Shown one piece after another: positions 9,285 to 40,933 of a DNA stretch of 41,839 nt; position 1 is the first letter of the stretch; every line of letters begins with the position of its first letter. A program made the translations under genes and the position numbers. Source of the DNA: Methanobacteriota archaeon (GTDB lineage: Archaea > Altiarchaeota > Altiarchaeia > IMC4 > QMZM01). The notes under the pieces are model-generated. The model did not search any database. It was not told the origin of the DNA and saw nothing but the letters and a program-made list of their open reading frames with translations. Location of the stretch: the NCBI GenBank assembly GCA_903930485.1, contig CAIYYO010000024.1, forward strand, positions 1 through 41,839, written 5' to 3'.

Positions 9285-9292
9285 ACCGTCGC

Positions 9293-11419: not shown

Positions 11420-11596
11420 TTTGATTAAATCTAAATCCTGATTTCATCAATTTTAAAAACCATATTTGATAGATATAATTTATAACTTTACTAGTTTAAG
11501 AACTTATTCGGTGTAAAACAAAACGACAAAAAAGACGGCCAATAGTAAACACCTGCAAATATATGCAGTTAAGACCCAAACTATGACCATTGAATA

Positions 11597-11606
11597 TTTT
11601 ATATAC
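11597..11606 (+). promoter_or_regulatory. TATA-like box upstream of the DUF112 permease gene
   Basis: The sequence ttttatatac is centred ~24 nt upstream of the ATG at 11625, in a 205-bp AT-rich divergent region shared with nrdD. Confidence 0.35.
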
Positions 11607-11624
11607 TATAAACACCTATAAAAA

Positions 11625-12833: not shown

Positions 12834-12836
12834 AAG

Positions 12837-14469: not shown

Positions 14470-14481
14470 AACAGAAAACTA

Positions 14482-15183: not shown

Positions 15184-15203
15184 TTTTTTTCACCACCTAT
15201 CTT

Positions 15204-15965: not shown

Positions 15966-15966
15966 C

Positions 15967-16815: not shown

Positions 16816-16823
16816 CTTGATGA

Positions 16824-17696: not shown

Positions 17697-17698
17697 TT

Positions 17699-18499: not shown

Positions 18500-18545
18500 C
18501 GCATTTATGTTTAATACTTGCACGCGGAACACAAAAATACAAAAC

Positions 18546-19400: not shown

Positions 19401-20299
19401 TTCGATTGCCTCCTCCTTTTTGCCAGCAGGTATTCTGAGGCCATGCTGAGGGCGAAGGCCATGAAGAACAACGTAAGCCCCAGGGTAAAGAGAGCGGCAT
19501 AATGCATGCTTCCGACAGGCACGTAGGACATATCCAACATTATCGCAGAAGTCAGGGTCTCTCCCCGGCTATCAATGCCGAGGATGTTCGACGGGATCAT
19601 TCCCACGTTGCCGAGGACCAGGACGACGGCCATGGTTTCGCCTATCGCCCTGCCCACTCCCAGGATGACTCCGGCAGCTATCCCGGGCATAGCGCCCGGC
19701 AGAATGACTTTCTGGATGGTCTGCCATTTGGTCGAGCCCAATGCGTAAGACGCTTCCCTGAAACTTCTGGGAACTGCACAAATCGCGTCCTGTGAAATGC
19801 TTATCACAATCGGCAGGATCATAACGCCGAGTATCAGTGCCGCAGCAAGTATCCCCTTGCCGGTTGGAAGAGAATCTCCTGTCAGCAATTTTCCAAGGTC
19901 CTGCTGTACCAGTCCCACGATCACGATCAATGCGAACAGGCCGTAGACTATCGAAGGGATTCCTGCCAGGAGTTCGATTGCCGGCCTCAGGATATTAACG
20001 GCTTTTTTTGGCGCCACCTCTGAAAGAAAGACTGCGCACGCGACTCCCAGCGGAACGGCTATGAAAAGCGCCCCGGCGGTCGTCAGGATAGAGCCGGCTA
20101 TGAATATTCCCGCGCCGTAAACGTTTGCCGTAGGCTTCCATACCGTTCCGGTGAGGAAACCAACCAGGTCTCCGTGAGAAAGGAACGGCAGGGCTTCCTT
20201 GAAAAGAAAAAAGACGATGAACAAAAGGATAAGGGCCGCGGATAACGCTGAGAGGAACAATGCCGCCCTTACCGTCTTTTCCTTGTCGCCGGGTTTCAT
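19394..20299 (-). CDS. pstC: Phosphate ABC transporter permease PstC, second copy
   Basis: 301 aa, paralogous to 16824..17696 (REASYALGSTKWQTIQKVILP). Confidence 0.85.
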   Translation of the reverse strand: MKPGDKEKTVRAALFLSALSAALILLFIVFFLFKEALPFLSHGDLVGFLTGTVWKPTANVYGAGIFIAGSILTTAGALFIAVPLGVACAVFLSEVAPKKAVNILRPAIELLAGIPSIVYGLFALIVIVGLVQQDLGKLLTGDSLPTGKGILAAALILGVMILPIVISISQDAICAVPRSFREASYALGSTKWQTIQKVILPGAMPGIAAGVILGVGRAIGETMAVVLVLGNVGMIPSNILGIDSRGETLTSAIMLDMSYVPVGSMHYAALFTLGLTLFFMAFALSMASEYLLAKRRRQSKC

Positions 20300-20302
20300 G
20301 CC

Positions 20303-21139
20303 TTATCTCAACTTTACGAACCCCTCGTCCTCGACTATTTTTTGTCCCGCGTCCGATAGCACATAATCTATGAATGCTTTCGCATTGCCGGAGGCTTCGC
20401 CTTTCGTCAGCATGTAGAGCTTCCTCGAGATGGGATACGTTCCGGACTTGATCGTCTCCCTGGTAGGCTCTATGCCGCCAATCTTCAGGCCTTTGACAGT
20501 TCCGTCCAGGTATCCTGCGCTGATGTATCCTATCGCGTTCGGGTTCGAGCCCACGGTCGCTTTAACGGCTCCGTTGCTGGGCTGCTGCTCTGCGTTTTGG
20601 GTATTATTGGTCTTGCCTTTGTCCATGATCATATCCTCAAAAGACGTCCTGGTACCGGAGCCTTCCTCCCTTATCACGACCACGATCTGCTTGTCAGGGC
20701 CGCCGAGTTCCTTATAGTTCGTTATCTTGCCGGAAAAGATGTCCTTGATCTGCTGCTTCGTGAGGTCCGAGAGTGTGTTGCCTGGATGGACGACGATCGC
20801 TATCCCGTCGTCGGCTATTTCGTAGACCTTGAGGTTCCCTGCTGCGATCTCATCAGCGGTCAGGTCTCTTGAAGATGCGCCTATGTCTGCCGAGCCTTCG
20901 GAGGCCATCTTTATCCCTGTGCCCGAGCCGCCTCCCGCAACCGAGACCGTGACGCCAGGATTAATCTTCATGTACGCTTCGGCAGCCTTTGCGGCTATCG
21001 GCTGGACGGTCGTCGATCCCGCCACCGTTAGTGTTTGTTTTTGTGTCCCTGGGTTGCTTCCCGTGCATCCTGCGTAGAGCAGGGTGGTTATAAGCAATAC
21101 CACGAGGTATGCTCCTTTTACCTTTCCGTTTATTTTCAT
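20303..21139 (-). CDS. pstS: Phosphate-binding protein PstS, second copy (lipoprotein-type signal)
   Basis: 278 aa with signal and lipobox-like LLYAGC, and AGSTTVQP and GGGSGTG motifs. By eye it is roughly half identical to the other PstS. Confidence 0.9.
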   Translation of the reverse strand: MKINGKVKGAYLVVLLITTLLYAGCTGSNPGTQKQTLTVAGSTTVQPIAAKAAEAYMKINPGVTVSVAGGGSGTGIKMASEGSADIGASSRDLTADEIAAGNLKVYEIADDGIAIVVHPGNTLSDLTKQQIKDIFSGKITNYKELGGPDKQIVVVIREEGSGTRTSFEDMIMDKGKTNNTQNAEQQPSNGAVKATVGSNPNAIGYISAGYLDGTVKGLKIGGIEPTRETIKSGTYPISRKLYMLTKGEASGNAKAFIDYVLSDAGQKIVEDEGFVKLR

Positions 21140-21162
21140 TAATGGCTATATAGAACATTGCT

Positions 21163-22249: not shown

Positions 22250-22303
22250 CTAAATGGCGTCTTATTACCAAGTTCCGACAAATATATACTTGAGGTGGTT
22301 GGT

Positions 22304-26415: not shown

Positions 26416-28317
26416 ATGCCTTCAAAAAACGCACCAACCGCCTTGGAAGATCTGAGAAAAAAGAGCCCGGAGAAATTCCCATCATCGGAAACCGCATTCA
26501 GCCGCATACATTCCGGGGACCACATACTGATAGGCTCGGGCTGCGGCGAGCCTCAATATCTGTTAAAGTCTTTCATCTCGTATGTCCGGGCCAACCCCAA
26601 GGCGATCCTTGATGCCGAAGTATTCCAGTTATGGGCCCTGGGAAACGTTCCTTATGGCGACGAGCGGCTTGCAGAGAACCTGCGCCACAATTCTTTTTTC
26701 ATAGGCTGCGAAGTCCGGGAAGCCGTGAACAAAGGGCTTGCCGACTATACGCCGATCTCTCTTTCAGACGTGCCGGATCTTTTTTTCAGGGGCATCGTGC
26801 CTGTCGACGTCGCTCTCATACAGGTTTCTCCCCCGGACGTTGAAGGATTCATGAGCCTCGGGGTCAGCGTCGACATCGTGAAGTCGGCAGTAAAACAGGC
26901 ATCCCTCGTAATCGTGCAGGTCAACTGCAACATGCCGAGGGTTTCCGGAGACGGACGGCTCCATGCGGACGATGTCGACTATATCCTTCCATGCGATGAG
27001 CCCCTTATCGAATACCGGCCCGAGGTCGACGAGGAGACTGCTGGAAAGATCGGCAACTATTTATCCCGCCTGGTGCATGACGGTGAGACGATACAAGCCG
27101 GCTACGGCGGGCTCGTCTCTTCTGCAGTGGCGCATCTTAAAGACAAGAAGCATCTGGGCGTACATACTGAGCTTTTGTCCGGCGGCCTGGTGAGCCTCTT
27201 GAGATCCGGGGCCGTTGACAACAGCAGTAAGACGGTCAACCCCTGGAAGACGGTTGCATCATTTTGCATGGGTACGCAAGAGGATTACCGATTCCTTGAC
27301 GGCAACACGGGAATAGAGTTCAGGGGAATAGAGTATACGAACGACCCGCTCGTCATCGCCGGGCACGAGAACATGACTGCGATAAACAGTGCCCTGGGCA
27401 TAGACCTGACCGGTCAGGCGACCGAGGAGTCTGTCGGAAAGTCTTTCTACGGCGGGATAGGCGGGCAGGCGAATTATATGCGCGGGGCGGTCCTTTCCAG
27501 GAACGGTAAAAGCATTCTCGTCCTCGAATCGACTGCCGAAGGCGGGAAAGTTTCTCGGATAATGCCTTTCCTCGAAGAAGGCGCCGGCGTCACCTTGAAC
27601 CGCGGCGACGTCCATTACGTGGTCACCGAGTACGGAATAGCATACCTGCACGGAAAGAACATACGCGAGAGAGCCATGGAACTGATATCCATCGCCCACC
27701 CGCGTTTCAGGCCGCACCTCCTCGCAATCGCTAAGAAGAACAATATCGTGTACCCCGACCAGGCTTTGATATCGGGAAAGAACGGAACATATCCCGAGGG
27801 ACTGGAGGCGTACCGGACGACGAGGACTGGGCTAGGCATCCTCCTTCGGCCGGTTAAGATAACCGACGAGCACCTTCTAAAGGACTTCTTCTATTCCCTT
27901 TCAGAGGAGAGCCTCTATCACCGGTTCATTTCTGTTAGGAAAGACATGCCTCACCACAGGCTCCAGGATTATACGGTCATAGACTACGAAAAACGCATGA
28001 TAATACTCGCAGTCTCGCCGGACGAAAAAGACGAAGAACTTATAGGAGTAGGACAATATGATATACTGGAGGACTCCCACACAGCAGAGATCGCCTTCGT
28101 CGTCAGGGACAAATACCAGAACAAAGGCGTGGGTAAAGAGCTTTTGAAATACCTCACGTACATCGCGAAAAAGAAAGGCTTGCTTGGCTTCAAGGCCGCA
28201 GTCCTGCCTGACAATAAAGCGATGACGACGCTCTTCGAAGAGGCCGGATTCGAAGCAGACAAAAAGACCGCCGACGGATTATACGAATACAGATCGATCT
28301 TCAGGAGGAGACAATGA
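26416..28317 (+). CDS. Fusion protein: acetyl-CoA hydrolase/transferase-family domain (4-hydroxybutyrate CoA-transferase-like) plus C-terminal Pat-type GNAT acetyltransferase domain
   Basis: 633 aa with a GGTG ribosome-binding site. The N-terminal ~450 aa carry GVHTE and GGIGGQANYMRGA motifs. The C-terminal ~165 aa carry YHRF...DY.....LAV....ELIGVGQY......TAEIAFVVRDKYQNKGVGKELL...A...G......VLPDNKAM..LFEEAGF, which is typical of the protein lysine acetyltransferase (Pat) GNAT. Confidence 0.75.
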   Translation: MPSKNAPTALEDLRKKSPEKFPSSETAFSRIHSGDHILIGSGCGEPQYLLKSFISYVRANPKAILDAEVFQLWALGNVPYGDERLAENLRHNSFFIGCEVREAVNKGLADYTPISLSDVPDLFFRGIVPVDVALIQVSPPDVEGFMSLGVSVDIVKSAVKQASLVIVQVNCNMPRVSGDGRLHADDVDYILPCDEPLIEYRPEVDEETAGKIGNYLSRLVHDGETIQAGYGGLVSSAVAHLKDKKHLGVHTELLSGGLVSLLRSGAVDNSSKTVNPWKTVASFCMGTQEDYRFLDGNTGIEFRGIEYTNDPLVIAGHENMTAINSALGIDLTGQATEESVGKSFYGGIGGQANYMRGAVLSRNGKSILVLESTAEGGKVSRIMPFLEEGAGVTLNRGDVHYVVTEYGIAYLHGKNIRERAMELISIAHPRFRPHLLAIAKKNNIVYPDQALISGKNGTYPEGLEAYRTTRTGLGILLRPVKITDEHLLKDFFYSLSEESLYHRFISVRKDMPHHRLQDYTVIDYEKRMIILAVSPDEKDEELIGVGQYDILEDSHTAEIAFVVRDKYQNKGVGKELLKYLTYIAKKKGLLGFKAAVLPDNKAMTTLFEEAGFEADKKTADGLYEYRSIFRRRQ

Positions 28318-30443
28318 CCGATAAACCGGACATAACAAGCCTGTTCGAGCCTCGCACCGTAGCGGTTGTCGGAGCCTCCCACAACCCTGAAAAGATCGGC
28401 TACAAGATTGTCGAGAACATAATCGCCTGCGGATACGCCGGCAGGATCTGTCCGATAAATCCCGAAGGCGGCGAGATACTGAAGCTCCCGGTCTACAAGA
28501 ACGTGGGCGACGTCGACGGGGAAATCGACGTGGCGGTCATAACCATCCCCTCGAAATACGTTTACGACGCCGTCAAGGCCTGCGCGGACAAAGGCGTCAA
28601 GTACTCGCTCATAATATCTTCCGGTTTCTCGGAGGTCGGCGACTACGAGAGCGAAAAGAAGATCGTCTCATGCGCGCAGGAAGGCGGTATGCGCATCATC
28701 GGGCCCAACATCTTCGGCATGTATGTCGCTAAGTCCTCGTTCAACGCAACCTTCGGTACAAGGGACGTACGCCCGGGCGGGATAGCGATAATAACCCAGA
28801 GCGGCGCCCTGGGAATATCCCTCATGGGCAAGACGGCGGTGATGAACATAGGGCTTTCAGGGATGTTCTCTCTCGGGAACAAGTCCGACGTAGACGAATC
28901 CGACCTGCTGGAATACCTGATAACCGACGACAGCACGCGGATAATAATGATGTACGTCGAAGGCGTAAAGAACGGCGGCCGTCTTGTGGAGCTGCTCAAG
29001 AAAGCTACCTCAAAAAAGCCAGTGATCGTCATCAAGGCCGGCAGGTCGAAGCGCGGGGCGATGGCGGCTGCATCCCATACCGGCTCCCTTGCAGGTTCGG
29101 ATGCGGTCTTCTCGGACATAATGAAGCAGTGCGGCGTCATACGCGCCGAAAGCATTCAGGAGGCCCTTGACGCGTGCAAGTACATCTCTAATTCCCCTCA
29201 GCCGAAGGGCGAGAATTCGGTCATAATAACTAACGGAGGCGGCATGGGAGTCATGGCAGCCGACGCATGCGAAAAATATTCCGTGAACCTTTACGACAAT
29301 ATAGAAGACCTTAAAAGGACATTTTCAAAAGTCGTGCCGGCATTCGGTTCCGTGAAGAATCCAGTGGATCTTACCGGCCAGGCGACGCTGGAGAACTACA
29401 AGACTGCGATAGACGCGGCGCTGGCGAACAAAGACATCCACACGGTTATATGCCTTGGATGCGAGACAGCGTTCTTCGATGCATCCAAGATAGCAGAGAT
29501 GATTAAAGGGTTGTATTCAAACAGCAAGCCTGCCAAGCCTTTGGTCTATTCGTTTTTCGGCGGCGCAAGGATTGAGGATTGCATAACGAGCCTTAAAGCC
29601 GTCGACATACCGGCGTTCTCCGACGTCTACGAAGCGGTCTCCTGTATGGGTGTATTGTACGAGAACTACAGGAACACGGCTTACGCGACCGAATCCGACC
29701 AGAAGGAAGAACAAGGGATCGACGATCCTTCAATAGACGTGATAGTCAAAAAGGCACTGGGTGAGGGCCGGCACTTCCTGCTGTCTTACGAGGCTGAAAA
29801 AGTCATGGCCGCCGCAGGTATACGGATGCCTAAGAGCTTCCTTGCGAAAGACTTTGACGAGGCCGTGAAATTCGCGGAAAAGATCGGTTATCCCGTAGCG
29901 CTGAAGGTCGTCTCAAAGGATATAATCCATAAAAGCGATGCAGGCGGCGTTGCTTTGAATCTCGAGAACAGGCAGGAGGTTTTGGACGCGTATCAGGTGA
30001 TACTCTACAACTGCAAAAAAGCCAAACCGGACGCAGTCATAGAAGGCGTCTCCGTGAGCGAGATGATGAAGAAGGAAATTGAAACCATCGCCGGCGCGGT
30101 AAGGGATAAATCGTTCGGGCCCGTCGTGATGTACGGCCTAGGCGGCGTGTACGTGGAGATATTGAACGATGTCGCATTCAGGTCTTTCCCTCTAGGCAGG
30201 AAGGACATACTCAAGATGATAAACGAAACAAAGTCGTCGCAGCTCCTCATGGGCGCAAGGGGCGAGAAACGCAAAGACGTCGGCTCCGTCGTGGATGCCG
30301 TGTCAAAGCTCGGAACAATACTCGCAAGGCATGAAGAGATATCTGAAATAGAGATCAACCCGCTCATGGTCTATGAGGACGGGCAGGGGGTAATGGCCCC
30401 GGATGTGCGGATCCTGTTGTCAAAGGGTCCGGAGGCGAAATAG
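28314..30443 (+). CDS. ADP-forming acetyl-CoA synthetase (acetate--CoA ligase, NDP-forming; fused alpha-beta)
   Basis: 709 aa, with its start overlapping the upstream stop in an ATGA. It has a CoA-binding N-terminus (VAVVGAS..P.KIGY), the phosphohistidine loop AAASHTGSLAGS and a C-terminal ATP-grasp region (GYPVALKVVS.DI.HKSDAGGV). Confidence 0.9.
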   Translation: MTDKPDITSLFEPRTVAVVGASHNPEKIGYKIVENIIACGYAGRICPINPEGGEILKLPVYKNVGDVDGEIDVAVITIPSKYVYDAVKACADKGVKYSLIISSGFSEVGDYESEKKIVSCAQEGGMRIIGPNIFGMYVAKSSFNATFGTRDVRPGGIAIITQSGALGISLMGKTAVMNIGLSGMFSLGNKSDVDESDLLEYLITDDSTRIIMMYVEGVKNGGRLVELLKKATSKKPVIVIKAGRSKRGAMAAASHTGSLAGSDAVFSDIMKQCGVIRAESIQEALDACKYISNSPQPKGENSVIITNGGGMGVMAADACEKYSVNLYDNIEDLKRTFSKVVPAFGSVKNPVDLTGQATLENYKTAIDAALANKDIHTVICLGCETAFFDASKIAEMIKGLYSNSKPAKPLVYSFFGGARIEDCITSLKAVDIPAFSDVYEAVSCMGVLYENYRNTAYATESDQKEEQGIDDPSIDVIVKKALGEGRHFLLSYEAEKVMAAAGIRMPKSFLAKDFDEAVKFAEKIGYPVALKVVSKDIIHKSDAGGVALNLENRQEVLDAYQVILYNCKKAKPDAVIEGVSVSEMMKKEIETIAGAVRDKSFGPVVMYGLGGVYVEILNDVAFRSFPLGRKDILKMINETKSSQLLMGARGEKRKDVGSVVDAVSKLGTILARHEEISEIEINPLMVYEDGQGVMAPDVRILLSKGPEAK

Positions 30444-31478
30444 ATGCAAAAGATAATTATCGCTTCTGCAAGCAGAGGCGCAGGGAAGACTTTTGTGACC
30501 GTGGGACTGATGAAGGCGGCCGGGAAGGGTCTCGGCTACATAAAGCCGCTCGGGAACCGGCTAGTCTACTCCCGGAAAAAACTCTGGGACTATGATGCTG
30601 CGCTCATAGCCAAGGTCTTCAAGCTCCAGATGCCGCCGGAAGATCTCACGATAGGCTTCGAGCATGCGAAGATCAAGCACTCATACACGAAGGATGCCGT
30701 GAAAAAGAAGGTCCTCGAGCTTTCGGCCGAAGCGTCGAAGGGCAAGAAAGCCCTCATCATAGAAGCCGGAACAGATTTGTGTCACGGGACAAGCATAAAC
30801 CTCGACCCGATCTCGCTTGCCAAATACGTGAAAGGGAAGATTGTCCTCGTCGTGAACGGGGACGATTACGACGCCCTCGACGATTCGCTCTTCTTCGGCT
30901 CGTGCATCAAGAAGACAGGCGCAGGGTTCGCAGGAGTGATAATAAACAACGTCAAAGACCCGTCGGGGTTCCGGGACCTGTACCTGCCGCGGATCAGGGA
31001 AGCAGGGATAAAGGTTCTTGGGATCATTCCATACAACGACGCCTTAACCCACTACGATGCCGGCTATCTGGCCGATAATCTTTTCTCCAAGACGTTAACC
31101 GGCGAAGCCGGCCTGGGCAAGGTCGTAGAGAATGTGTTCGTAGGAGACGTGTCTTCCACGACGGCTCTCAAGAACCCCTCATTCCATAAGAAAGGCAACC
31201 TCGTCATAACCGGAGGCGACAGGAGCGACATGATCCTCGCGGCCATAGAAACGGGCGCATCATGCGTTATATTGACCAACAACATAATGCCGCACGCGAA
31301 CATAATATTAAAGGCATCGCACGCGCAGGTCCCACTGCTGCTGGTTCCGACCGATACGTACACGACGGCAGTAAGGGTCGAGCACCTCGAGCACATGCTG
31401 ACGGAAAAAGACGAGGAGAAGATCGCAGCCCTGGGCAGGATGGTCAAGAAGCACGTGAAGCTGAAAGAAATATTTTAA
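30444..31478 (+). CDS. DRTGG-domain protein resembling the N-terminal regulatory region of phosphotransacetylase (no PTA catalytic domain)
   Basis: 344 aa; its ATG directly abuts the upstream TAG. It has a P-loop-like ASASRGAGKTFVTVGL and a DRTGG-type LVITGGDRSDMILAAIETGASCVILTNN. Confidence 0.7.
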   Translation: MQKIIIASASRGAGKTFVTVGLMKAAGKGLGYIKPLGNRLVYSRKKLWDYDAALIAKVFKLQMPPEDLTIGFEHAKIKHSYTKDAVKKKVLELSAEASKGKKALIIEAGTDLCHGTSINLDPISLAKYVKGKIVLVVNGDDYDALDDSLFFGSCIKKTGAGFAGVIINNVKDPSGFRDLYLPRIREAGIKVLGIIPYNDALTHYDAGYLADNLFSKTLTGEAGLGKVVENVFVGDVSSTTALKNPSFHKKGNLVITGGDRSDMILAAIETGASCVILTNNIMPHANIILKASHAQVPLLLVPTDTYTTAVRVEHLEHMLTEKDEEKIAALGRMVKKHVKLKEIF

Positions 31479-31533: not shown

Positions 31534-32178
31534 ATGAAGGCTTGTTTCCTTCTTTTCTTGGCGGCTTGTTTGACTCTTACATGCTGCACCGGTCAGGTGG
31601 ACCAGAACCTGAAATCGGTGGAGATAAAAGAATACAACGGGACGAAATTGGGCTCGATGACCGACTTCGTCGAGAACTCGATTAACGGGCCGCAGTCCGT
31701 CAATATCTCGACCTACCGGCTGTCTGTGGACGGCCTGGTCGCTAACCCTCAGCATTACACATATTCTGAGGTGCTGGGCCATAGAAGCTTCCTTAAAGTG
31801 ACCACTCTCGACTGCGTTGAAGGCTGGAGCGTGAAAGTCCTCTGGCACGGCGTTCTGGTTTCAGACCTCGTCGACGAAGCGAAGCCGTCGCCCGGCGCGA
31901 ACACCGTCATATTCCATGCCTATGACGGATATACGACGTCGCTTCCTCTTCAGTACGTCCGGGACAAGAAAATACTACTGGCCTATAAGATAAACAACGT
32001 GACTCTACCTCCGGCTAACGGTTACCCGTTCCAGCTCGTCGCCGAAGACAAGTGGGGGTACAAGTGGATCAGATGGGTGGACGAGATACGAGTATCCAAT
32101 GATTCGTCTTATAAGGGATACTGGGAGAGCCGGGGTTATAGCAATGACGGAGACAACTCCCGGCCTATGTTTGGCTGA
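31534..32178 (+). CDS. Molybdopterin-dependent oxidoreductase, MsrP/YedY-like catalytic domain, lipoprotein-type signal
   Basis: 214 aa with the signal LLFLAACLTLTCC. LDCVEGWSVKVLWHGVLV carries the Mo-ligand Cys motif of the YedY/sulfite-oxidase family, and GYPFQLVAEDKWGYKWIRW is also present. Confidence 0.75.
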   Translation: MKACFLLFLAACLTLTCCTGQVDQNLKSVEIKEYNGTKLGSMTDFVENSINGPQSVNISTYRLSVDGLVANPQHYTYSEVLGHRSFLKVTTLDCVEGWSVKVLWHGVLVSDLVDEAKPSPGANTVIFHAYDGYTTSLPLQYVRDKKILLAYKINNVTLPPANGYPFQLVAEDKWGYKWIRWVDEIRVSNDSSYKGYWESRGYSNDGDNSRPMFG

Positions 32179-32184
32179 GGTCTG

Positions 32185-32190
32185 TTTTTT
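32185..32190 (+). terminator. Oligo-T tract after the molybdoenzyme gene
   Basis: tttttt begins 7 nt after the TGA stop at 32176-32178. Confidence 0.4.
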
Positions 32191-32260
32191 GATCAATGAG
32201 GCCTCCAAAACCGTCTATTAAGGAATATTTTCCTAGACATAACCCTGGGGTTGAAAAGAA

Positions 32261-32878
32261 ATGGATGCAAAAAACAAGATCTACGTTCTGCCGGAACTGC
32301 CTTATGCCTACGATGCATTGAAGCCGTACATATCTGAAGAACAATTGAGGATACACCACGACAAGCATCATGCGGCTTATGTAGCCGCGGCGAACGCTCT
32401 TCTGGAATCGCTTGAAAAGGCGAGGCAGGGAAATACGGACCTGGATTACGGAACGGTCGCAAAACAACTGTCCTTCAACACTGGAGGCCATCGGCTGCAT
32501 TCGCTCTACTGGAAGAACCTGACTCCCGTGGATAATACCGGCAAGGCGCCGAAGCCCTCGGGAGAGATAGGCAACGCCATAGACCGGGAATTCGGAAGCT
32601 TCGACCGCTTCAAAAAAGAGTTCTCGCAGACCGCGGCAAAGACCGAAGGCTCGGGCTGGGCAGTCCTATCGTTTTGCCGCGAGGTCGAGCGGCCTATAAT
32701 AATGCAGGTCGAGAAGCACAATATGAACGTGACGCCAAGGCGTCCCGTGATACTGGTGCTGGACGTATGGGAGCACGCATACTATCTGGACTACAAGAAC
32801 GACCGGGCCAAATACGTTGAAAACTTCTGGAACATAGTCAACTGGGACGAAGTGGGCAGGCGGCTTGCAGATCTGTAG
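32261..32878 (+). CDS. Fe/Mn-family superoxide dismutase
   Basis: 205 aa with LPELPYAYDALKPYIS...HHDKHH and DVWEHAYYLDY motifs. Confidence 0.95.
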   Translation: MDAKNKIYVLPELPYAYDALKPYISEEQLRIHHDKHHAAYVAAANALLESLEKARQGNTDLDYGTVAKQLSFNTGGHRLHSLYWKNLTPVDNTGKAPKPSGEIGNAIDREFGSFDRFKKEFSQTAAKTEGSGWAVLSFCREVERPIIMQVEKHNMNVTPRRPVILVLDVWEHAYYLDYKNDRAKYVENFWNIVNWDEVGRRLADL

Positions 32879-33765: not shown

Positions 33766-34284
33766 TTAACGTCTATTCCTTATGCTCCTCATCAGCGCCA
33801 GCAGCCCCTTCATTAACTCTTTCGGCTCTGGCGGATTCCCGGGTATTTTGATATCGACCGGCAGTATCATGTCCGCGCCGCCGAGGACTGCGTATGTCCC
33901 TTTATAGATCCCGCCGTCGCACGCGTCGTCCCCGACCGCCATTACGTACTTGGGCGAAGGAGTCGCATCATACGTCTTTTTCACTGCCCCGGCCATGTTG
34001 CGCGTGACCGCGCCGGTTATAACAATAACGTCCGCATGCCTCGGCGACGCTACGAAGGTTACTCCGAATCTTTCGACGTCGTAGTGAGGCGTCCCCAGGT
34101 TGTTCAATTCGATTTCGGCGGCATTGTCGCTTCCGCTATCAAGTTCGCGAATGGCAAGGCTTCGCCCAAATATGGTGTCTATGTCCTTTTTCAGCCTGAT
34201 GCCTAGCGCCTCGAATTCTTCGTCCTTGAAAGTGACTTCCTCAGTCACGGGTTTTTTGAAAATGTTCGTGATAGCTTTGTTCAT
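33766..34284 (-). CDS. NuoB/HycG-like small subunit lacking the canonical [4Fe-4S] cysteine ligands
   Basis: The start at 34284 (MNKAITN) is 5 nt after the large-subunit stop. The longer ORF to 34572 overlaps that gene. The fold motifs are clear: YDVERFGV..VASPRHADV.VITGAVT and PK.V.AVG. The cluster motifs are degenerate: GSDNAAE instead of GSCNGCE, GDDACDGG instead of GxCAxxGG, and IPGNPP instead of IPGCPP. Confidence 0.8.
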   Translation of the reverse strand: MNKAITNIFKKPVTEEVTFKDEEFEALGIRLKKDIDTIFGRSLAIRELDSGSDNAAEIELNNLGTPHYDVERFGVTFVASPRHADVIVITGAVTRNMAGAVKKTYDATPSPKYVMAVGDDACDGGIYKGTYAVLGGADMILPVDIKIPGNPPEPKELMKGLLALMRSIRNRR

Positions 34285-34289: not shown

Positions 34290-35870
34290 TTACAAGTCTG
34301 TGCCCGAATATGAAAGGTTGAAACTCTTGTTGATCAGGGGGAAATCCGGCACGATGTTGCCGATGACTGCGTGTTCTATCGCCTGCCAGTTGCAGAACGA
34401 GGCCGTGCGTATTTTGTATCGGTCGACGACGCCGTTCTTTACCCAAATCCAGTGGAAGCTTTGGCCCCTTGCGCATTCGACGAGGGAGGTGGCGTAGCCG
34501 TCCCTGATGGCATAATCCGTAGATACCGGGCCCGAAGGCAGATCGTCGAGCGCCTTTTTTATCATCCTGCACGAGTCGAGGATATCCGAAGCCTTTGTCT
34601 CGAACCTTGCCAGGACGTCGCCCTCGTCTACGGTTTTCACGTTCGGTTTTATTTTTTCGTATAGGCCGTAGGGGTGATATATCCTGGTATCTGTAGAAAG
34701 CCCATTCGAGCGCGCCATCGGTCCGGTTATGTGCAGGGCCGCTAGCAGCTCTTTACGTATAACGCCCGTCTTTTCGAATCTGTCTATGACCGAGGGCGTT
34801 GAACGCACATATTCGACCGACTCTTCAAACGTCTCTATACATTTATCCAGGAAGGTAGGCAGCTGTTTCAGCGCGTCTTCCGGAACGTCTTTTTTCAGCC
34901 CGCTTATGCCTATGACGTCTTTCATGAAACGCGAACCTGTAAGGGCCTTGTTCTGTCTCAGGATCTCTTCCCGTAATATGAAGAACGGGCTAGCGCCTAC
35001 CGGGAACGCGACGTCGACGCACATCCCGGCAAGGTCTCCGAGAAGCGAATAGATCCTTTCCATCTCGAGGAAGACAGTGCGCAGGCGCCATGCGCGTTCC
35101 GGCGGCCGGATGCAGCAGAGCTTCTCTATGGCATTGCAATATGCGACGGCGTTGGATACCTTCTCGTCTCCGCTTATGGATTCCGCGATCCTCACGCATT
35201 CCTCGGGCGTTTTCCCTTCCGCCAGTTTCTCTATCCCGCGGTGTTTGTAGAACATCCGTATCTCGAGGTGGTAGATCGTCTCTCCTATGACGCTGAACCT
35301 GAAGTGTCCGGGCTCTATGATCCCGGCGTGGACTGGTCCGACGGGTATCTCGTAGACTCCTTCGCCTGCGACTTTTCTGAACTGGTATTCTCCAGCGCCG
35401 GTCGGCTCGCCGTTTTCCATTGTATCGAGCTCAGAGTTCTTGAACCCTTTTTGCAGCGGGTGGAACCCTTCTGGGTATGATTCGTGCAGGAAGAGCCTTC
35501 TTTCGTCGAAGGGGTTTGTGAACCTTATGCCGTAGCCGTCGGTCGCTTCTCTTTCGTACCATGACGCCGACGGGAACGACGACGTTATCGATGGCGCGCT
35601 TTCCCATCTGAGCGGGAGCCGGAATACTGCGATCTCTTTGTAGGGCTTTTTCTCGAATGCATAGAGCAGCGTGTAGGCGGCGTGCGCATCAAAGCCTTCG
35701 ACGCAGAAAAGGCTTGCGAGTTCGTAGGCGCTTGCTGACAGGAGATGCATGACGGTCTCCAAGTCCCTCTCAGCTAGGGTAATGTAGACGTCGTTATTGC
35801 ACCCTATCTTTGCGTCTGACTCGACTATCCTGCCCCTTGTCGTATATGCTATGTCGTCTATAAGCTCCAT
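34290..35870 (-). CDS. NuoC-NuoD fusion (HycE/HyfG-like large subunit) lacking all [NiFe]-binding cysteines
   Basis: 526 aa with an N-terminal NuoC-like part (WYEREA.DGYGI.F) and a NuoD-like part (PVGPVHAGIIEPGHFRF, RMFYKHRGIEK). The L1 motif reads SISGDEKVSN where CG[ILV]Cxx.H is expected. The C-terminus reads NLSYSGTDL-stop where DPCxSCxDR is expected. Confidence 0.85.
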   Translation of the reverse strand: MELIDDIAYTTRGRIVESDAKIGCNNDVYITLAERDLETVMHLLSASAYELASLFCVEGFDAHAAYTLLYAFEKKPYKEIAVFRLPLRWESAPSITSSFPSASWYEREATDGYGIRFTNPFDERRLFLHESYPEGFHPLQKGFKNSELDTMENGEPTGAGEYQFRKVAGEGVYEIPVGPVHAGIIEPGHFRFSVIGETIYHLEIRMFYKHRGIEKLAEGKTPEECVRIAESISGDEKVSNAVAYCNAIEKLCCIRPPERAWRLRTVFLEMERIYSLLGDLAGMCVDVAFPVGASPFFILREEILRQNKALTGSRFMKDVIGISGLKKDVPEDALKQLPTFLDKCIETFEESVEYVRSTPSVIDRFEKTGVIRKELLAALHITGPMARSNGLSTDTRIYHPYGLYEKIKPNVKTVDEGDVLARFETKASDILDSCRMIKKALDDLPSGPVSTDYAIRDGYATSLVECARGQSFHWIWVKNGVVDRYKIRTASFCNWQAIEHAVIGNIVPDFPLINKSFNLSYSGTDL

Positions 35871-35882: not shown

Positions 35883-37334
35883 CTAAAATCCGAGTCCGGA
35901 AACTATGCTATTCAATGCTCCGTCCAAAGGCTGCGGGAAGAACAACCCGAGGCCGTAGACCAGTATTATGAGGATTATCACCGGGATTTTCATCCTTACA
36001 GGTGTGGGGTAACGGCGCATAACGTCGTTCTCGTCTATTCTCGTGAAGATGGCGGTGATGAATAATGCGAAGCCGGCGGCCGCTAACAACAGCAGGAGGA
36101 GAACTGCGATGAGGAGGATCGTCGAGAACTTCGCCACCTGGACGAGGATGGAAAATTTTGTAATGAAAACGATTGCTGGCGGGATCCCTATTATGGCAAG
36201 GCTTCCGAGGATCAGTCCTGCAGAGGCAAGCGGCTGCAGTTTTAGCGCGTTCTTTATGTTCTCGATCTTGTTGCTGTCGTATTGCCGGTTCAGTATCCCC
36301 GCCGACAGGAATAGAAGGGCTTTGGTAAGGGAATGGGCAAGGACGTGATACAAAGTCCAGTAGATCGCGATCGGTGTCCCGATTCCGATTCCTATGAGCA
36401 TGAGTCCTGCGTGTTCCGTGCTTGAGAATGCTATCAGTTTTTTCAGATTCTTCTGCTGCAGCATGCTGAAGGCTGCGATGAACAGGCTGAGGATTCCGAA
36501 AGCTATCAGGAGGTTCGAACACGTCGCGGCCGAGCCTGGGTTCTGCCTCGTTATCGAGTAGATGCGCAGTATTCCGTATATCCCTATGTTCAGCATGACG
36601 GCCGAGATTATGGCGCTTACTGCCGAGGGGGCTTTCGAGTAGGCGTGCGGCAGGCTTGTATGCAGCGGCGCTATTCCGGATTTGGCCGCGTATCCGAGGA
36701 ACATGAACGCGAAGCTTGCGGCAAGGGGCGCTGCCGGGAAGGTTTTTGCGTTCTTGAGCAGGACGTCCCAGTTCAGTGTCCCTGTTCCGAGGGTTTTTTC
36801 AGTCAGGGCGAACAGGAGGATCAGGCCGATGAACGAGAACAGCATCGCAGTAGACGTGACGAATATGTATTTCAGCGACGCATCTATGTTCTTTTTCGAG
36901 TTCAGTATGGCTATGAGGAAGGCCGTGAAGAACGTGGTGAGTTCGGCGAATATCCAGAACAGCGCAAGGTTGTTGGACGAAAAGGCGAGGACTGTGAACA
37001 ATAGCAGCGCATTGAAGGAGAGATAGTAGCCCTTAAGGTTTTTCCTTTCAAGGATGCCGATCTTTATCAGGCTCTCTGCATGCCCTCCTGCATAGACTGC
37101 GGCGAGCAGGAAGATCGTGCCGGCGATGAATATCTCGTAGGTGCTGAGGGCGTCGATATACAGGTTGTTTTCAAGATAGTAAACCGGAATGGCGCCGGAA
37201 TACTGGAGGCAGGCGGCGAACGCGATGCATGCGATGGCGTGGGCTATTGCAACAAGATTCATAGCTTTATGCGATTTCAGGAATTGCGTGAGCGCAAGGG
37301 CCGCGAAAGCCGCCAGAAGATAATATTGGAGCAT
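35883..37334 (-). CDS. Antiporter-like subunit (NuoM/N, HyfD/F-type)
   Basis: 483-aa polytopic protein with Mrp/NuoN-type motifs (SGIAPLHTSLPHAYSKAP, AFSSTEHAGLML). Confidence 0.8.
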   Translation of the reverse strand: MLQYYLLAAFAALALTQFLKSHKAMNLVAIAHAIACIAFAACLQYSGAIPVYYLENNLYIDALSTYEIFIAGTIFLLAAVYAGGHAESLIKIGILERKNLKGYYLSFNALLLFTVLAFSSNNLALFWIFAELTTFFTAFLIAILNSKKNIDASLKYIFVTSTAMLFSFIGLILLFALTEKTLGTGTLNWDVLLKNAKTFPAAPLAASFAFMFLGYAAKSGIAPLHTSLPHAYSKAPSAVSAIISAVMLNIGIYGILRIYSITRQNPGSAATCSNLLIAFGILSLFIAAFSMLQQKNLKKLIAFSSTEHAGLMLIGIGIGTPIAIYWTLYHVLAHSLTKALLFLSAGILNRQYDSNKIENIKNALKLQPLASAGLILGSLAIIGIPPAIVFITKFSILVQVAKFSTILLIAVLLLLLLAAAGFALFITAIFTRIDENDVMRRYPTPVRMKIPVIILIILVYGLGLFFPQPLDGALNSIVSGLGF

Positions 37335-37335: not shown

Positions 37336-38061
37336 TTACGCCTCCTCCCCGTTTCTTTTCCTTAAATGCTCGAACCTCTTCTGCAGCCGGGGGATATGGA
37401 TGGCGTTGAATTTCTCCCTGAACTCCTCCACGCTGGAATCTACTCCTATGGAAAGGATGGCCGCGAGCAGGACTATCATAAAAAGGTCTATCATCACAAG
37501 CACCTCTATCATGAAAGGCAGCTCGGTCAGAAACAGGCTGAAGAGCAGGACCCCGTTCTCCATCGTCAGATAGCCGATCACCTTGGTGATTACTTTTTTC
37601 CTGCTGAACGTGATGAGCATCCCCATGAGAGTAAGGGATATCCCGAATACCGCGCCGAGATAGAAGAGGTCGCCGGGCGAGAGTTCCCGCAGGATCTTTG
37701 TGAACGAGCCGTAGACGAGTAGGATCAGGAATATCATCGCGGTTATGGATTCCATCGGCGAGAGATAGTGGAAATCTATGTCTCGGGATATTTTTATCTC
37801 TTTCTGTATCTTTTTTATGGCATAAGGTATCAGTATCACTTTGCTGGTCACTGTCAAGACGGCCAGGTATAAGAGCATCTCGCTTCCGTTGGAAAGATAA
37901 AGAGAAACAGCGATGACCGACAATAGCAGGGACTGGAGCTGGTATGCCGAGACCAGTGAAAGAAGGTCTTTCCTCGTCACGACGAACGCGCCGGTCACCA
38001 GGACCATGACCAGGAGCGCCTCTATCCAGTCGCCGCCAGCCGGCAAGCCTGACGCTATCAT
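37336..38061 (-). CDS. HyfE-like small membrane subunit
   Basis: The start at 38061 forms an ATGA overlap with the stop of the upstream gene. The ORF extension to 38259 lies inside that gene. The protein is ~241 aa with multiple TM helices and a hydrophilic tail. Its position and size match HyfE of hydrogenase-4-type operons. Confidence 0.65.
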   Translation of the reverse strand: MIASGLPAGGDWIEALLVMVLVTGAFVVTRKDLLSLVSAYQLQSLLLSVIAVSLYLSNGSEMLLYLAVLTVTSKVILIPYAIKKIQKEIKISRDIDFHYLSPMESITAMIFLILLVYGSFTKILRELSPGDLFYLGAVFGISLTLMGMLITFSRKKVITKVIGYLTMENGVLLFSLFLTELPFMIEVLVMIDLFMIVLLAAILSIGVDSSVEEFREKFNAIHIPRLQKRFEHLRKRNGEEA

Positions 38062-38999
38062 CCGAACACCTCCAACCATATCGTGAGGATCGAGAAGAAG
38101 AACGCTATCATGAAAAGGCTGGGCAGGTTGAAGAACCTCATCTTTGCCATGGAAGATTCCACAAGGCCGGTCACGAAAGAAAGCAGGCCGGCCTTTAAGG
38201 CGAATGCTGCGGCAGCGATCAGTATTCCTGCGACGGTGAGCTCCGAGGTCAGCCCCCATGGAAGGAGTATGTTTATCAGGACCGCCATGTATAGCGTTTG
38301 TTTTATCGCGTGGGAAAGCTCCATCAGGGCAAGGTCTCTTCCGGAGTATTCGAGGACCATCGCCTCATGGACCATGGTGAGCTCCAAATGAGTCTCGGGA
38401 TTGTCCACCGGCACTCGAGAGGTCTCGACTATGAGGACGATGAACAAGGGGATCGCTATGAGAAGCAGTCCCGGGTTCAGGAATGCGGTCGCACCGGCTC
38501 TTTCAAGGAACATCTGATGGAAGTCGGTGGTATGCAGGCTGAAAGAAAGGGCGGCGAATGCTATGATCGTTATCGGCTCGATGATGGCCGATATGCTCAT
38601 CTCCCTCGAGCTTCCCATGCCTCCGAAGGTGCCTCCGGCATCCAGTCCGGACAAAGCCATGAAGAATTTTGCCAGCGCGAGCATGTAGAGGAACAGGATG
38701 ACGTTGCCTATCCCGTCGGTCGGCGTAGGTATCAAAGCCAGGGGTATGCACAGCGAAGCCACGAGCATCACTGCTATGTTGATGTAAGGCGTCGCCCTCA
38801 TGATGGCCGACGTGTTCTTTGAATAGATCCTCTCTTTTTTCAGGAGCTTGGACAGATTGTAATACGGCTGCAGGAGCGGCGGGCCTCTCCTACCCTGCGC
38901 CCGCGCCTTGACAATCTTTATGAGCCCCATGTAGAACGGCGATAACAGCACCACCAGTACGGTGTTCAGCAGGGCGTATAACAGGAACGAGGCGTTCAT
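38058..38999 (-). CDS. NuoH/HycD/HyfC-like membrane subunit
   Basis: The ATG at 38999 forms an ATGA overlap with the upstream stop (the ORF track starts at the GTG at 39008). Motifs are RAQGRRGPPLLQPYYNLSKLLKKE and ETSRVPVDNPETHLELTMVHEAMVLEYSG. Confidence 0.85.
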   Translation of the reverse strand: MNASFLLYALLNTVLVVLLSPFYMGLIKIVKARAQGRRGPPLLQPYYNLSKLLKKERIYSKNTSAIMRATPYINIAVMLVASLCIPLALIPTPTDGIGNVILFLYMLALAKFFMALSGLDAGGTFGGMGSSREMSISAIIEPITIIAFAALSFSLHTTDFHQMFLERAGATAFLNPGLLLIAIPLFIVLIVETSRVPVDNPETHLELTMVHEAMVLEYSGRDLALMELSHAIKQTLYMAVLINILLPWGLTSELTVAGILIAAAAFALKAGLLSFVTGLVESSMAKMRFFNLPSLFMIAFFFSILTIWLEVFG

Positions 39000-40933
39000 A
39001 TGAACCACCCCACGTAGACCATGATCAGGACCGCGGCGATGAATACGTATGCCAGGTATGTGTCCAGGTTCCAGTTCTGGAGCCGGGAAACCTTCTCGGA
39101 TAATGAATTAACGAGCCTCGCAATAGGGAGATAGAGCGCTTCCTCGAAGAATTTCACCAGATGTATCTCTGCGCTGCCCTGCACGAAAAGGCTCTTGCTC
39201 TCGTCAAAATACGTCGCCTCCCTGACCTCCTTTGTCCTGTATATCGAGCTGAATATCCTGACGATGGGCTGGGAGTATCCGGATGCGGTGTATTCGTTCC
39301 TCCCGGTCTGCGTTAATATGCCGCAGCCCCACGTTTCCCCCATTCTTTCCGCGCTCGATGAAACGTTTTTCAAGACAAACCATGCAAGAACGTAGGCCGC
39401 CGCGAGGAACGACCCGATAAGCAACAGGTCAGGTATGGGCAGAACGTATCCTGCGCCTGCGAATATCTGGTAGGAAAAGATGCCGAGGGACATGCATAAA
39501 AAGGCAAGTATCATGGGTCCGAGGAGCATGTATTTCCCAACCTCTTTCGCATTCTTTGCATTATCAGACCTCGGGGCCGCGAGGAAGGTTATGCCGAAGG
39601 CTTTCACGAAGCATGCGGACGCAAGGGCGCTCGTCAATGCGAGAATCGCAAGCGAGGAAAGCATGAGCACCTTCATGAAAGGATCGACCAAGGCATAGGA
39701 TTGCAGGAGCGCGGTGAATATCATGAGCTCGCTTACGAAGCCGTTGAACGGAGGGAGACCGGAGATTGATACGGCGCCTACGAGAAAGAACAATGCGGTG
39801 TACGGCATCCTCTTCACGAGCCCGCCCATGTCTTCGATGTTCCTCTCGCCGGTCCTGTAGACCACGGAGCCGGCAGTCAGGAAAAGAAGGCTCTTGAAGA
39901 CGGCATGGTTGAGGACGTGGAAAAGCGAACCCAACAGGCAGAGCATTGCGATATCAGGGAGGTTGTTATTCGTGAATATTATGTACGCTCCGAAACCGAT
40001 GAGGATTATCCCTATATTCTCTATGCTGTGATAGGCCAGCAGCCGTTTTATGTCGTGCTCCTTGAGGGCGTATATGACCCCCAGTATCGCTGAAAGAGTC
40101 CCGGCGACGAGGATGAGCACCCCCCACCAGGTTTCAGGCTGCAGGACCGTGAGCGTGAAGCGCATCAGGCCGTATATTGCGACTTTGATCATGACCCCGG
40201 ACATCAGGGCAGAAATATTCGACGGGCTTGCCGTATGCGCGTATGGAAGCCATTTATGGAACGGTATAACGCCGGCCTTTATGCCGAAGCCGACGAAAAG
40301 CGCCAGGAATACCACTCCTGCGGCGCCGGTACCGATATCTGCTGGCTGTATCGCAAAAGACCCAGTCACTGCATTGAGCCCCAAGAATCCGGCCGTCAGG
40401 AACAACGTCGACAGCTGCGTCATGATGAAATAGAACAGTCCGGCCTTGCGGGTCTCGGGCTTTTCGTATTCGAACAAGACCAGGGCGAACGACGACATAG
40501 ACATTATCTCCCAGAAGAACAGGAAGGCGAACATGTTCGCAGAGGACACGACGAACAACATGGCAGCTATGAAGAGATTCATCAAACCCGTAAGGATGTT
40601 CTTCCTCTTCTCCCCGTGCCAATGTCCTATGTACTGAACCGAGTATATCGAAGCGCTCAATGCGACGACTGAGATAAGCAGGATGAAAAAAGCAGCCAAG
40701 CGGTCTATACGAAAAGAGAGCACAAGACCTGGGGCGATCCCGTACGGCGCAAGGTATACCTGCTGGTTCGTATACAGGATAAATACGGAAAACGAGATGA
40801 ACACGAGCAGGGCGAGCATCGAGAAAAACAGGGCTATCCGTCTCATCACGCCGTCTCCGCCGATCCTCACGAGCGGGAGGACCGTTCCGAGGAGCAGTAA
40901 GGCTGCGCCTACGTAGAAAGCAGTCGAGAGCAT
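38996..40933 (-). CDS. NuoL/HyfB/HycC-like antiporter-type subunit
   Basis: 645-aa polytopic protein with FFWEIMS, PFHKWLPYAHTASPSNISALMSG and AYHSIENIG motifs. Confidence 0.85.
   Translation of the reverse strand: MLSTAFYVGAALLLLGTVLPLVRIGGDGVMRRIALFFSMLALLVFISFSVFILYTNQQVYLAPYGIAPGLVLSFRIDRLAAFFILLISVVALSASIYSVQYIGHWHGEKRKNILTGLMNLFIAAMLFVVSSANMFAFLFFWEIMSMSSFALVLFEYEKPETRKAGLFYFIMTQLSTLFLTAGFLGLNAVTGSFAIQPADIGTGAAGVVFLALFVGFGIKAGVIPFHKWLPYAHTASPSNISALMSGVMIKVAIYGLMRFTLTVLQPETWWGVLILVAGTLSAILGVIYALKEHDIKRLLAYHSIENIGIILIGFGAYIIFTNNNLPDIAMLCLLGSLFHVLNHAVFKSLLFLTAGSVVYRTGERNIEDMGGLVKRMPYTALFFLVGAVSISGLPPFNGFVSELMIFTALLQSYALVDPFMKVLMLSSLAILALTSALASACFVKAFGITFLAAPRSDNAKNAKEVGKYMLLGPMILAFLCMSLGIFSYQIFAGAGYVLPIPDLLLIGSFLAAAYVLAWFVLKNVSSSAERMGETWGCGILTQTGRNEYTASGYSQPIVRIFSSIYRTKEVREATYFDESKSLFVQGSAEIHLVKFFEEALYLPIARLVNSLSEKVSRLQNWNLDTYLAYVFIAAVLIMVYVGWFI

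Follow-up and report, generated by a model that had tools for sequence, protein, structure and literature searches.

What might a hydrogenase-like membrane complex do when the cysteines that should hold its active-site metal and its proximal iron-sulfur (FeS) cluster have been replaced? This question is raised by a six-gene operon in a contig of a Methanobacteriota archaeon (GTDB lineage Archaea; Altiarchaeota; Altiarchaeia; IMC4; QMZM01; GenBank assembly GCA_903930485.1, contig CAIYYO010000024.1), analysed over its whole stretch of 41,839 nucleotides and hereafter called the window. The operon runs on the minus strand in a Hyf-like order, with HyfB-like, NuoH/HycD-like, HyfE-like, HyfF-like, large-subunit and small-subunit genes following each other from 38996-40933 down to 33766-34284; all six open reading frames (ORFs) are intact and tightly spaced, with overlaps or gaps of -13 to +12 nt. 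The large subunit, encoded by the fifth gene, is almost certainly of the Ehr type and unable to bind a NiFe center, and the complex as a whole very probably lacks redox centers. As the best explanation we favor, short of conviction, a six-subunit Ehr complex without a redox cofactor, most likely serving redox-independent ion translocation.

The large subunit and its former [NiFe] motifs

The large-subunit gene (34290..35870, minus strand) encodes 526 aa, in which a NuoC-like domain (Pfam Complex1_30kDa) is fused to a NuoD/HycE-like hydrogenase large-subunit domain (Complex1_49kDa); the NiFeSe_Hases model of Pfam reaches 22 bits, below its cutoff of 25.8. When all PDB chains were searched with phmmer, the top match was E. 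coli HycE (7z0s_E, E = 7e-67), aligned over residues 92-525 of the window protein. The fold agrees with this assignment: an AlphaFold2 (AF2) monomer model built from a 17-sequence alignment (predicted template modeling score 0.80) matched HycE best (template modeling score 0.81), and the fold search confirmed the HycE/NuoCD fold only.

The first-pass annotation of this DNA had reported that both [NiFe] motifs of the protein are replaced, and translation of the minus strand reproduces its peptides exactly: SISGDEKVSN, directly followed by AVAYCNAIEKL, and NLSYSGTDL, directly followed by the TAA stop codon at 34290-34292. In the phmmer alignment, the first segment (S231-I-S233-G-D235-E236-K-V-S-N240; 35151..35180, minus strand) pairs residue by residue with R-V-C-G-I-C-G-F-A-H of HycE, which is the L1 motif RxCGxCxxxH. 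The second (N518-L-S520-Y-S-G523-T-D525-L526; 34293..34319, minus strand) pairs in the same manner, from N518 to D525, with D-P-C-Y-S-C-T-D, the L2 motif DPCxSCxD. All four Cys positions hold other residues, with S233 in place of Cys1, E236 of Cys2, S520 of Cys3, and G523 of Cys4. The protein does contain 11 Cys (positions 24, 56, 225, 245, 252, 253, 284, 344, 434, 466, and 493), none of them at a motif position, and the alignment to HycE bears out no second pair of motifs in which Cys pairs might have been kept. Because the two segments are true homologs of L1 and L2 and contain no Cys pair, the large subunit would be unable to ligate a [NiFe] center.

To judge whether this pattern is particular to one protein, its 120 best matches (56-67% identical) were compared. 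Ten motif residues, S233, G234, D235, E236, N240, N518, S520, Y521, G523, and D525, are invariant in 120/120 of them, and the majority residue accounts for a larger fraction in the motif columns (0.88 in L1 and 0.96 in L2) than in the protein on average (0.76). An identical large subunit is found on five contigs, and the three places listed for them come from three different samples. The Cys-free L1 and L2 are a family signature under purifying selection, and neither chance nor a sequencing error. At three non-ligand motif positions the window protein departs from its own clade: K237 is T or S in the other 119 homologs, S239 is A in 112, and S522 is A in 119. The absence of a C-terminal extension, which the first-pass annotation had also pointed out, is real, given that all 120 chains end directly after the L2 motif. 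As a diagnostic feature it has to be abandoned, since the clade also includes true hydrogenases with all four Cys (E-R-x-C-G-x-C...H and E-L-C-Y-x-C-x-D-R), and these, too, end without a tail.

Taken alone, Cys-less L1 and L2 motifs are the hallmark of an already known class. Ehr complexes resemble group 4 hydrogenases but have a large subunit devoid of the CxxC motifs (PMC6349859, PMC10284858, PMC10432482, PMC7894505), and they have carried this name since 2005 (Coppi 2005 and Marreiros 2013, as cited in PMC6349859, PMC3569383, and PMC10432482). They are known from Geobacter, Desulfotomaculum, Margulisbacteria/Saganbacteria, comammox Nitrospira, ammonia-oxidizing archaea, and bacteria of the candidate phyla radiation (CPR) (PMC6349859, PMC3569383, PMC10284858, PMC10432482, PMC7304191, PMC7894505). 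The window protein combines group 4 large-subunit homology and the lack of all [NiFe] Cys with clustering of its gene with NuoB-, NuoH-, and antiporter-like genes and, judged from sequence, fits every structural criterion of the class. Ehr had been listed as a candidate at first pass and is the class whose defining pattern the large subunit shows. Database records name its relatives ‘formate hydrogenlyase subunit 5’, ‘Ni,Fe-hydrogenase III large subunit’, ‘Membrane-bound hydrogenase subunit alpha’, or ‘NADH-quinone oxidoreductase subunit C’.

The small subunit and the recurrent loss of its cluster

The more unusual feature of the locus is found in the small subunit. Its gene (33766..34284, minus strand) starts 5 nt past the stop codon of the large subunit and encodes a NuoB/HycG-like protein of 172 aa (Pfam Oxidored_q6). 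Alignment to NDUFS7 and the motif tables of its clade place the ligand positions of the proximal [4Fe-4S] cluster at D53, A56, D120, and N150. Ligands 1 and 2 fall into G51-S-D53-N-A-A56, which stands in place of G-S-C-N-G-C (34117..34134, from the motif tables); ligand 3 has become D120 in G118-D119-D120-A-C122-D-G-G, in place of G-x-C-A-x-x-G-G (33910..33933); and ligand 4 lies in P148-G-N150-P-P, in place of P-G-C-P-P (33829..33843), the latter two being read from both alignment and tables, and all three on the minus strand. The whole subunit contains one Cys, and C122 matches a non-ligand Cys common in its clade. The ligands of cluster N2, a tandem CC and two further Cys, are likewise absent in the NDUFS7 alignment. 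Among the loci grouping with the window (the window clade), the replacement residues D53, D119, and D120 are strictly conserved. Despite these exchanges the protein exceeds the cutoff of the NCBIfam NuoB subfamily model (133.9 vs 116 bits), and automatic pipelines would therefore probably name it NuoB.

Scans with Pfam and NCBIfam detected no ferredoxin-like HycF/NuoI subunit encoded by the operon, and the window-clade clusters neither contain nor adjoin an ORF with two CxxCxxCxxxC motifs. By its sequence, then, the complex would have no site for NiFe or for any Cys-ligated FeS cluster, and we infer that it acts neither as a hydrogenase nor as a reductase of quinone or sulfur.

To place this loss in context, 165 related loci were collected from genome and metagenome scans, complemented by four contexts of database matches, and classified by the four ligand positions of the large and the four of the small subunit. 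Twenty are true hydrogenases, 106 are Ehr with an intact small-subunit cluster, 26 are Ehr without it, and 13 remain unclassified by these positions. Within the window clade, the combination of S-E-S-G in the large and D-x-D-N in the small subunit occurs at 20/20 loci with a scorable small subunit. Named loci of the clade come from Altiarchaeia, Bathyarchaeia, Thermoplasmatota, Methanosarcina, Methanosarcinales, Dehalococcoidales, Dehalogenimonas, and Moduliflexus; the B-H-E-F-L-S gene order is repeated in relatives. The six-gene cassette spans Altiarchaeia, Bathyarchaeia, Thermoplasmatota, Methanosarcina, Dehalococcoidia, and Moduliflexus. Locus L085, at 67% identity, is the one closest to the window cluster. 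In a neighbor-joining (NJ) tree, which is a rough distance tree, the window clade is monophyletic and lies near cluster-bearing Ehr of Firmicutes and Nitrososphaeria; the window large subunit groups with true hydrogenases that have four Cys and share its gene order.

A further FeS-less clade comprises loci from Saccharibacteria, Daviesbacteria, Firestonebacteria, and Thermoleophilia. Since its genes are ordered S-B-H-(E)-F-L and it forms a separate branch of the NJ tree, among cluster-bearing Ehr of the same order, the cluster has been lost at least twice. The replacements are alike in the two clades: Asp is the most frequent residue for ligand 1 and the main one for ligand 3, and Asn or Asp takes the place of ligand 4. 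An exhaustive HMMER search with the small subunit gave a similar picture: of 134 full-coverage representatives (50% identity), 21 have one Cys or none among the four ligand residues, with mainly D, E, N, or S instead. We also observed a different combination at L057, a metagenome-assembled Chloroflexota genome (cluster ~10001-11296): its large subunit keeps the four [NiFe] Cys (RICGAC... and ELCYACLDR), and its small subunit, with 12 Cys in all, has E, C, E, and D at the proximal-cluster positions (GDEACSGG, PGDPP). Such a locus would pair an active site of hydrogenase type with the lack of a canonical proximal cluster.

Three of the FeS-less loci, all of the CPR-type clade, are linked to genes of the F1Fo ATP synthase. 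In L065 (Saccharibacteria; 59-13344) the order is atpB, atpF, atpH, atpA, atpG, EhrS-B-H-E-F-L, atpD, atpC, such that the Ehr cluster interrupts a complete atp operon, with atpG on one side and atpD on the other; in L055 (Daviesbacteria; 2989-21159) it lies between atpH-atpA-atpG-atpD and atpC; and in L062 (7-9368) atpG, atpD, and atpC are found directly upstream of it. No other locus carries atp genes within 10 kb.

The Ehr literature that we surveyed, in which Coppi 2005 and Marreiros 2013, the founding papers, figure only as cited, contains no mention of small-subunit cluster loss. Within that survey, three observations appear undescribed: the coupled disappearance of the small-subunit cluster throughout the clade, the independent repetition of this loss with acidic residues arising convergently, and the embedding of Ehr genes in the atp operon of CPR bacteria.

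Coupling elements and the function of the complex

The membrane arm of the complex has kept its channel and coupling residues. The first gene (38996..40933, minus strand) encodes an antiporter-like subunit of the HyfB/HycC/NuoL type (645 aa; Pfam Proton_antipo_M and Proton_antipo_N), which scores 869.8 bits against the NCBIfam model NF006418 ‘hydrogenase membrane subunit’ (cutoff 794) and finds its top PDB match in HycC (7z0s_C, E = 7.6e-70), with MrpA and MrpD also among the best. Its channel residues E142, K219, K250, H339, H343, K347, and E402 are invariant in the window clade, preserving the Glu of transmembrane helix (TM) 5, the Lys of TM7 and TM8, the His and Lys of TM11, and the Glu of TM12. 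The second antiporter-like subunit, HyfF/NuoM-N-like and 483 aa long (35883..37334, minus strand), reaches 569.1 bits against NF006427 (cutoff 511), has its best PDB matches in MbhH and MbsH, and retains E131, K218, K338, and K393 throughout the clade. The NuoH/HycD-like anchor of the peripheral arm (38058..39008, minus strand; Pfam NADHdh) has 316 aa when read from a GTG codon, overlapping the upstream gene by 13 nt, and its relatives are annotated at 313 aa. It matches HycD best (7z0s_D, E = 3.7e-39), the acidic loop between TM5 and TM6 is included in the alignment, and E195, D202, E209, E215, E220, and E230 are invariant in the window clade. The small HyfE-like membrane subunit (37336..38061, minus strand) is 241 aa long by the start of its relatives, with a 4-nt overlap with the upstream gene; a gene of 241 aa is annotated at this place on the contigs with an identical large subunit. 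It matches NF008556 ‘hydrogenase 4 membrane subunit’ with E = 4.7e-14, under that model’s cutoff, and a Pfam scan of the protein gave no match.

On the peripheral side, the beta1-beta2 coupling loop of the large subunit (P179-VHAGIIEPGHFRF-192; 35295..35336, minus strand) has been retained. In alignments to MbhL and Nqo4, E186 falls on MbhL E21 and I185 on Nqo4 H38; MbhL E21 is the proton-transfer Glu beside the active site, and Nqo4 H38, together with Y87, is a quinone ligand (PMC7684303). The loop P-V-H-A-G-I-I-E-P-G-H-F-R-F is near-identical in true hydrogenases and Ehr proteins (85 loci), and in the 120 best homologs it is invariant, including E186, save two conservative I/V changes. Within the window clade, the small subunit has 37% invariant positions and a mean identity to the window of 69%, followed by the large subunit (29% and 56%) and the membrane subunits (14-28% and 51-61%); purifying selection is strongest on the peripheral arm.

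How could such a complex work? In solved homologs (e.g. 7Z0S and 6CFW), the four residues that hold a single cluster come together in space. Because this is the case in all of them, D53, D119, D120, and N150 would line one small cavity, with S233, D235, E236, E186, and D525 lining a neighboring one. Carboxylates so clustered and so conserved suggest a site for cations or protons. We propose that protonation or cation binding in these two carboxylate-lined former metal pockets could replace redox chemistry as the trigger, and that the event would be passed via the coupling loops to the antiporter-like membrane arm. The function might then be cation/proton exchange, or the conversion or regulation of an ion-motive force. 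Ion translocation without redox chemistry is, as a mechanism, a tentative proposal. Doubtful, but in our eyes worth stating, is the broader view of a widespread and horizontally mobile six-gene machine of the complex I/hydrogenase type that carries no redox cofactors and whose pockets would have turned into carboxylate sites, at which protonation, cation binding, or a non-redox reaction would drive or gate the membrane arm. This reading may extend to CPR bacteria, which would then hold an independently derived counterpart of the cofactor-free machine. The linkage to ATP synthase fits a redox-free function because these bacteria are not known to have electron transport or respiratory chains. 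A membrane-only paralog also fits redox-independent action: L085 has a second B-H-E-F cluster without large and small subunit (15883-20909), ending beside a superoxide dismutase gene. Such a cluster also occurs in L082 (20303 to the end).

Several points weigh against this proposal. The papers surveyed all call the function of Ehr unknown, and no experiment on any Ehr complex has been reported in them (PMC10284858, PMC10432482, PMC6349859). Homologs of MrpE/F/G or of the MbhA-G Na+ module are absent from the operon, leaving antiport without direct subunit support, and the HyfF-like subunit has Asn at the position of the TM8 Lys of MbhH and MbsH. The ATP synthase linkage is confined to the CPR clade and is not seen in the window clade, and the phylogenetic argument rests on a coarse tree. 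Metal binding at the Asp and Glu sites is something we infer from the residues, and the geometry of the pocket is unreadable in the AF2 model, whose per-residue confidence (pLDDT) falls below 50 at 143-213, around the beta1-beta2 loop, and at 491-526, around L2; these two regions are the ones that pack against partner subunits. A partner of the complex could also be encoded outside the 42-kb window.

The last point leads to the possibility that the complex is still an oxidoreductase, fed by a separately encoded or transiently docking electron carrier and driving ion pumping, like other Ehr, MBH, or MBS complexes, from a new non-Cys metal site or a bound organic cofactor; Fe or Mn held by D235, E236, H181, H189, and D525 could be one example. 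Such a complex would agree with the general literature view, itself a presumption, that Ehr links redox chemistry on the cytoplasmic side to ion translocation (PMC6349859). Since 106 of the 165 loci keep the small-subunit cluster, a redox-active ancestor is probable, and the strictly conserved replacement residues are of metal-ligand type, with E186 kept beside them. With the FeS ligands gone, however, the sequence argues against redox chemistry here: no Cys is left for the proximal cluster, which is the sole electron entry to the pocket in solved relatives (PMC8165549), and a ferredoxin-like subunit or a conserved redox neighbor is missing from all 21 window-clade loci. In addition, this type of complex has been kept, linked to ATP synthase, in Saccharibacteria and Daviesbacteria, neither of which is known to have an electron transport chain. 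We consider a surviving oxidoreductase unlikely. Unlikelier still is a chemically driven pump without redox chemistry, or its reverse, an enzyme powered by the ion-motive force, in which Mg2+, Mn2+, or Zn2+ in the pocket would catalyze a hydrolysis, a hydration, or a decarboxylation-type reaction. The very strong constraint on acidic residues in both former metal pockets, the convergence of independent lineages on Asp or Glu at the small-subunit ligand positions, and the intact coupling loops are what one would expect of it, but no substrate-related gene is conserved nearby, Pfam and NCBIfam detect no hydrolase or lyase motif, and neither a riboswitch nor another Rfam element hints at a ligand. 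A chemically driven pump is not known from this superfamily.

The two remaining explanations are much harder to reconcile with the data. That all catalytic and cluster ligands are gone could indicate a group 4 hydrogenase operon that no longer functions and decays as selection on it relaxes, an assumption made in one paper for the Ehr of Geobacter (PMC13194489). Yet the six ORFs are intact and tightly packed, ten motif residues do not vary among 120 homologs at 56-67% identity, the peripheral subunits are the most conserved, and the cassette has been kept from Altiarchaeia to Moduliflexus; moreover, the Ehr subunits of Geobacter are abundant proteins (PMC7894505). On these conservation data we reject the pseudogene or relic reading as very improbable. 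Least probable of all is a NuoD or NuoCD protein from a compact form of complex I, from an Fpo-like enzyme reducing quinone or methanophenazine, or from an Mbx/MBS sulfur reductase. By E-value the best NCBIfam matches are indeed NuoD models, relatives are named after NADH-quinone oxidoreductase subunit C, and the small subunit passes the NuoB cutoff. All curated NuoD models nevertheless stay far under their cutoffs (NF004739, 198.9 vs 360; TIGR01962, 154.9 vs 459; NF008728, 141.9 vs 840), the quinone ligands H38 and Y87 of Nqo4 align with I185 and G234, N2 ligands and a NuoI match are missing from the operon, and the gene order is of the Hyf type, with HycE as best match in both sequence and fold. 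This agrees with the first-pass view that the protein is not a plain complex I subunit and excludes NuoD/NuoCD membership; Fpo and MBS/Mbx fall by their defining residues, there being no Cys at any L1/L2 position and no counterpart of MbsL C85/C385 or of the MbsJ cluster.

Genomic setting, implications, and known systems

Beyond the six genes, the genomic neighborhood is not shared. All-against-all clustering of flanking ORFs from the 21 window-clade loci revealed no conserved neighbor and no conserved redox partner, and the Pfam contexts of six lineages had nothing in common beyond the cassette. A gene for a CitMHS-family transporter lies divergently upstream of the window cluster, as it does in L085, and this arrangement is found only within Altiarchaeia. 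After the complete window cluster come genes for BrkB and superoxide dismutase; a 205-aa ORF is taken to be the latter, a putative Fe/Mn superoxide dismutase, by synteny with the Sod_Fe gene of L085, and it stands beside a short protein of 214 aa with a molybdopterin-binding domain of the sulfite-oxidase type (31534-32878). An Rfam scan of the window and eight bacterial FeS-less loci detected no riboswitch or leader RNA and gave only three tRNAs; a tRNA scan of the window found none.

Among the other genes of the window, those at 26416-31478 encode a fusion of acetyl-CoA hydrolase/transferase and GNAT acetyltransferase (633 aa), a 709-aa ORF, and a DRTGG/AAA_26 protein, and suggest an acetyl-CoA/acetate node. 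A phosphate-uptake locus (14482-21139) carries, twice in a row, genes for a substrate-binding protein (PBP_like_2) and two permeases (BPD_transp_1), then one ABC ATPase and PhoU. An 878-aa protein (22295-24931) joins Lipoprotein_15 repeats, a PQQ-type beta-propeller, and a C-terminal cupredoxin domain, and an 870-aa Filamin/PQQ_2-like protein is encoded near the Ehr cluster of L083, a relative from Bathyarchaeia. The anaerobic ribonucleotide reductase NrdD is found at 9293-11419. Nre, TiaS, and a beta-CASP nuclease are archaeal genes elsewhere in the window; the named TiaS relatives are all from Altiarchaeota, and one of them shares a 124-kb Altiarchaeia contig with a large subunit 65% identical to that of the window, which marks the host as an archaeon of the Altiarchaeota. 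No formate dehydrogenase or hyp gene is present among the window ORFs scanned.

Many environmental archaea and bacteria carry Ehr complexes, whose subunits database records routinely misname as hydrogenase, formate hydrogenlyase, or NADH dehydrogenase. Because of these names, metabolic reconstructions that count Ehr as H2- or NADH-linked are wrong. In the subclade described here, purifying selection is strong although both the catalytic metal site and the sole FeS cluster able to supply it are gone. If the redox-independent function that we favor is true, the coupling apparatus of complex I, consisting of the beta1-beta2 loop, the NuoH loop, and the antiporter chain, can be run without electron transfer. 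The complex would then offer a natural ‘redox-free complex I’ in which coupling can be studied apart from electron transfer, and a simple six-subunit system for asking how events in a peripheral pocket reach the proton channels, which is debated for complex I. Strains of Methanosarcina, a genus with genetic tools, carry the cluster, and experiments may be feasible there.

How does the complex compare to systems already known? With other Ehr, such as EhrA-EhrL-EhrS of G. sulfurreducens (GSU0739-45), it shares the signature [RSK]-[IV]-S-G-D and N-L-S-Y-[SA]-G-x-D as well as the set of NuoB-like, NuoH-like, HyfE-like, and antiporter-like subunits beside the large subunit. Whereas most Ehr keep the Cys of the small subunit, the window clade has D-x-D-N in their place; in addition, neither the Arg preceding Cys1 nor the C-terminal Arg is retained there, and the final His of L1 has become Asn. 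Formate hydrogenlyase and hydrogenase 4 of E. coli (7Z0S) provide the best match in sequence and fold, including the fused NuoC-like N-terminal domain and the Hyf-type membrane set, but the window operon lacks their NiFe ligands, their proximal cluster, and the ferredoxin-like HycF/HycB subunit. Measured against group 4 hydrogenases in general, the four L1/L2 Cys and the four-Cys proximal cluster are absent and the proton-transfer Glu (E186) is present.

The Q-module of complex I (NuoB, C, D, and H) and MBS/Mbx of Pyrococcus have the fold and the three-loop coupling in common with the window complex, and NuoD, too, has lost [NiFe] (PMC8165549, PMC7684303). Complex I and MBS keep a proximal [4Fe-4S] cluster and a cluster chain, however, and the window complex has none: MbsL retains C85 and C385, MbsJ a three-Cys proximal cluster, and MbsN is a two-cluster subunit (PMC7684303), all without counterparts here. 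The Mrp antiporter, finally, shares homologous antiporter-like subunits with the same Glu, Lys, and His channel residues. It is a seven-subunit MrpA-G set without a peripheral arm, of which only MrpA/D-like homologs occur in the window complex; MrpB, C, E, F, and G find no match, and the NuoH-like subunit and NuoB/C/D-like cap are features that Mrp lacks. The likeness to Mrp may thus be one in a possible mode of action, ion translocation without redox chemistry, and not one of family membership.

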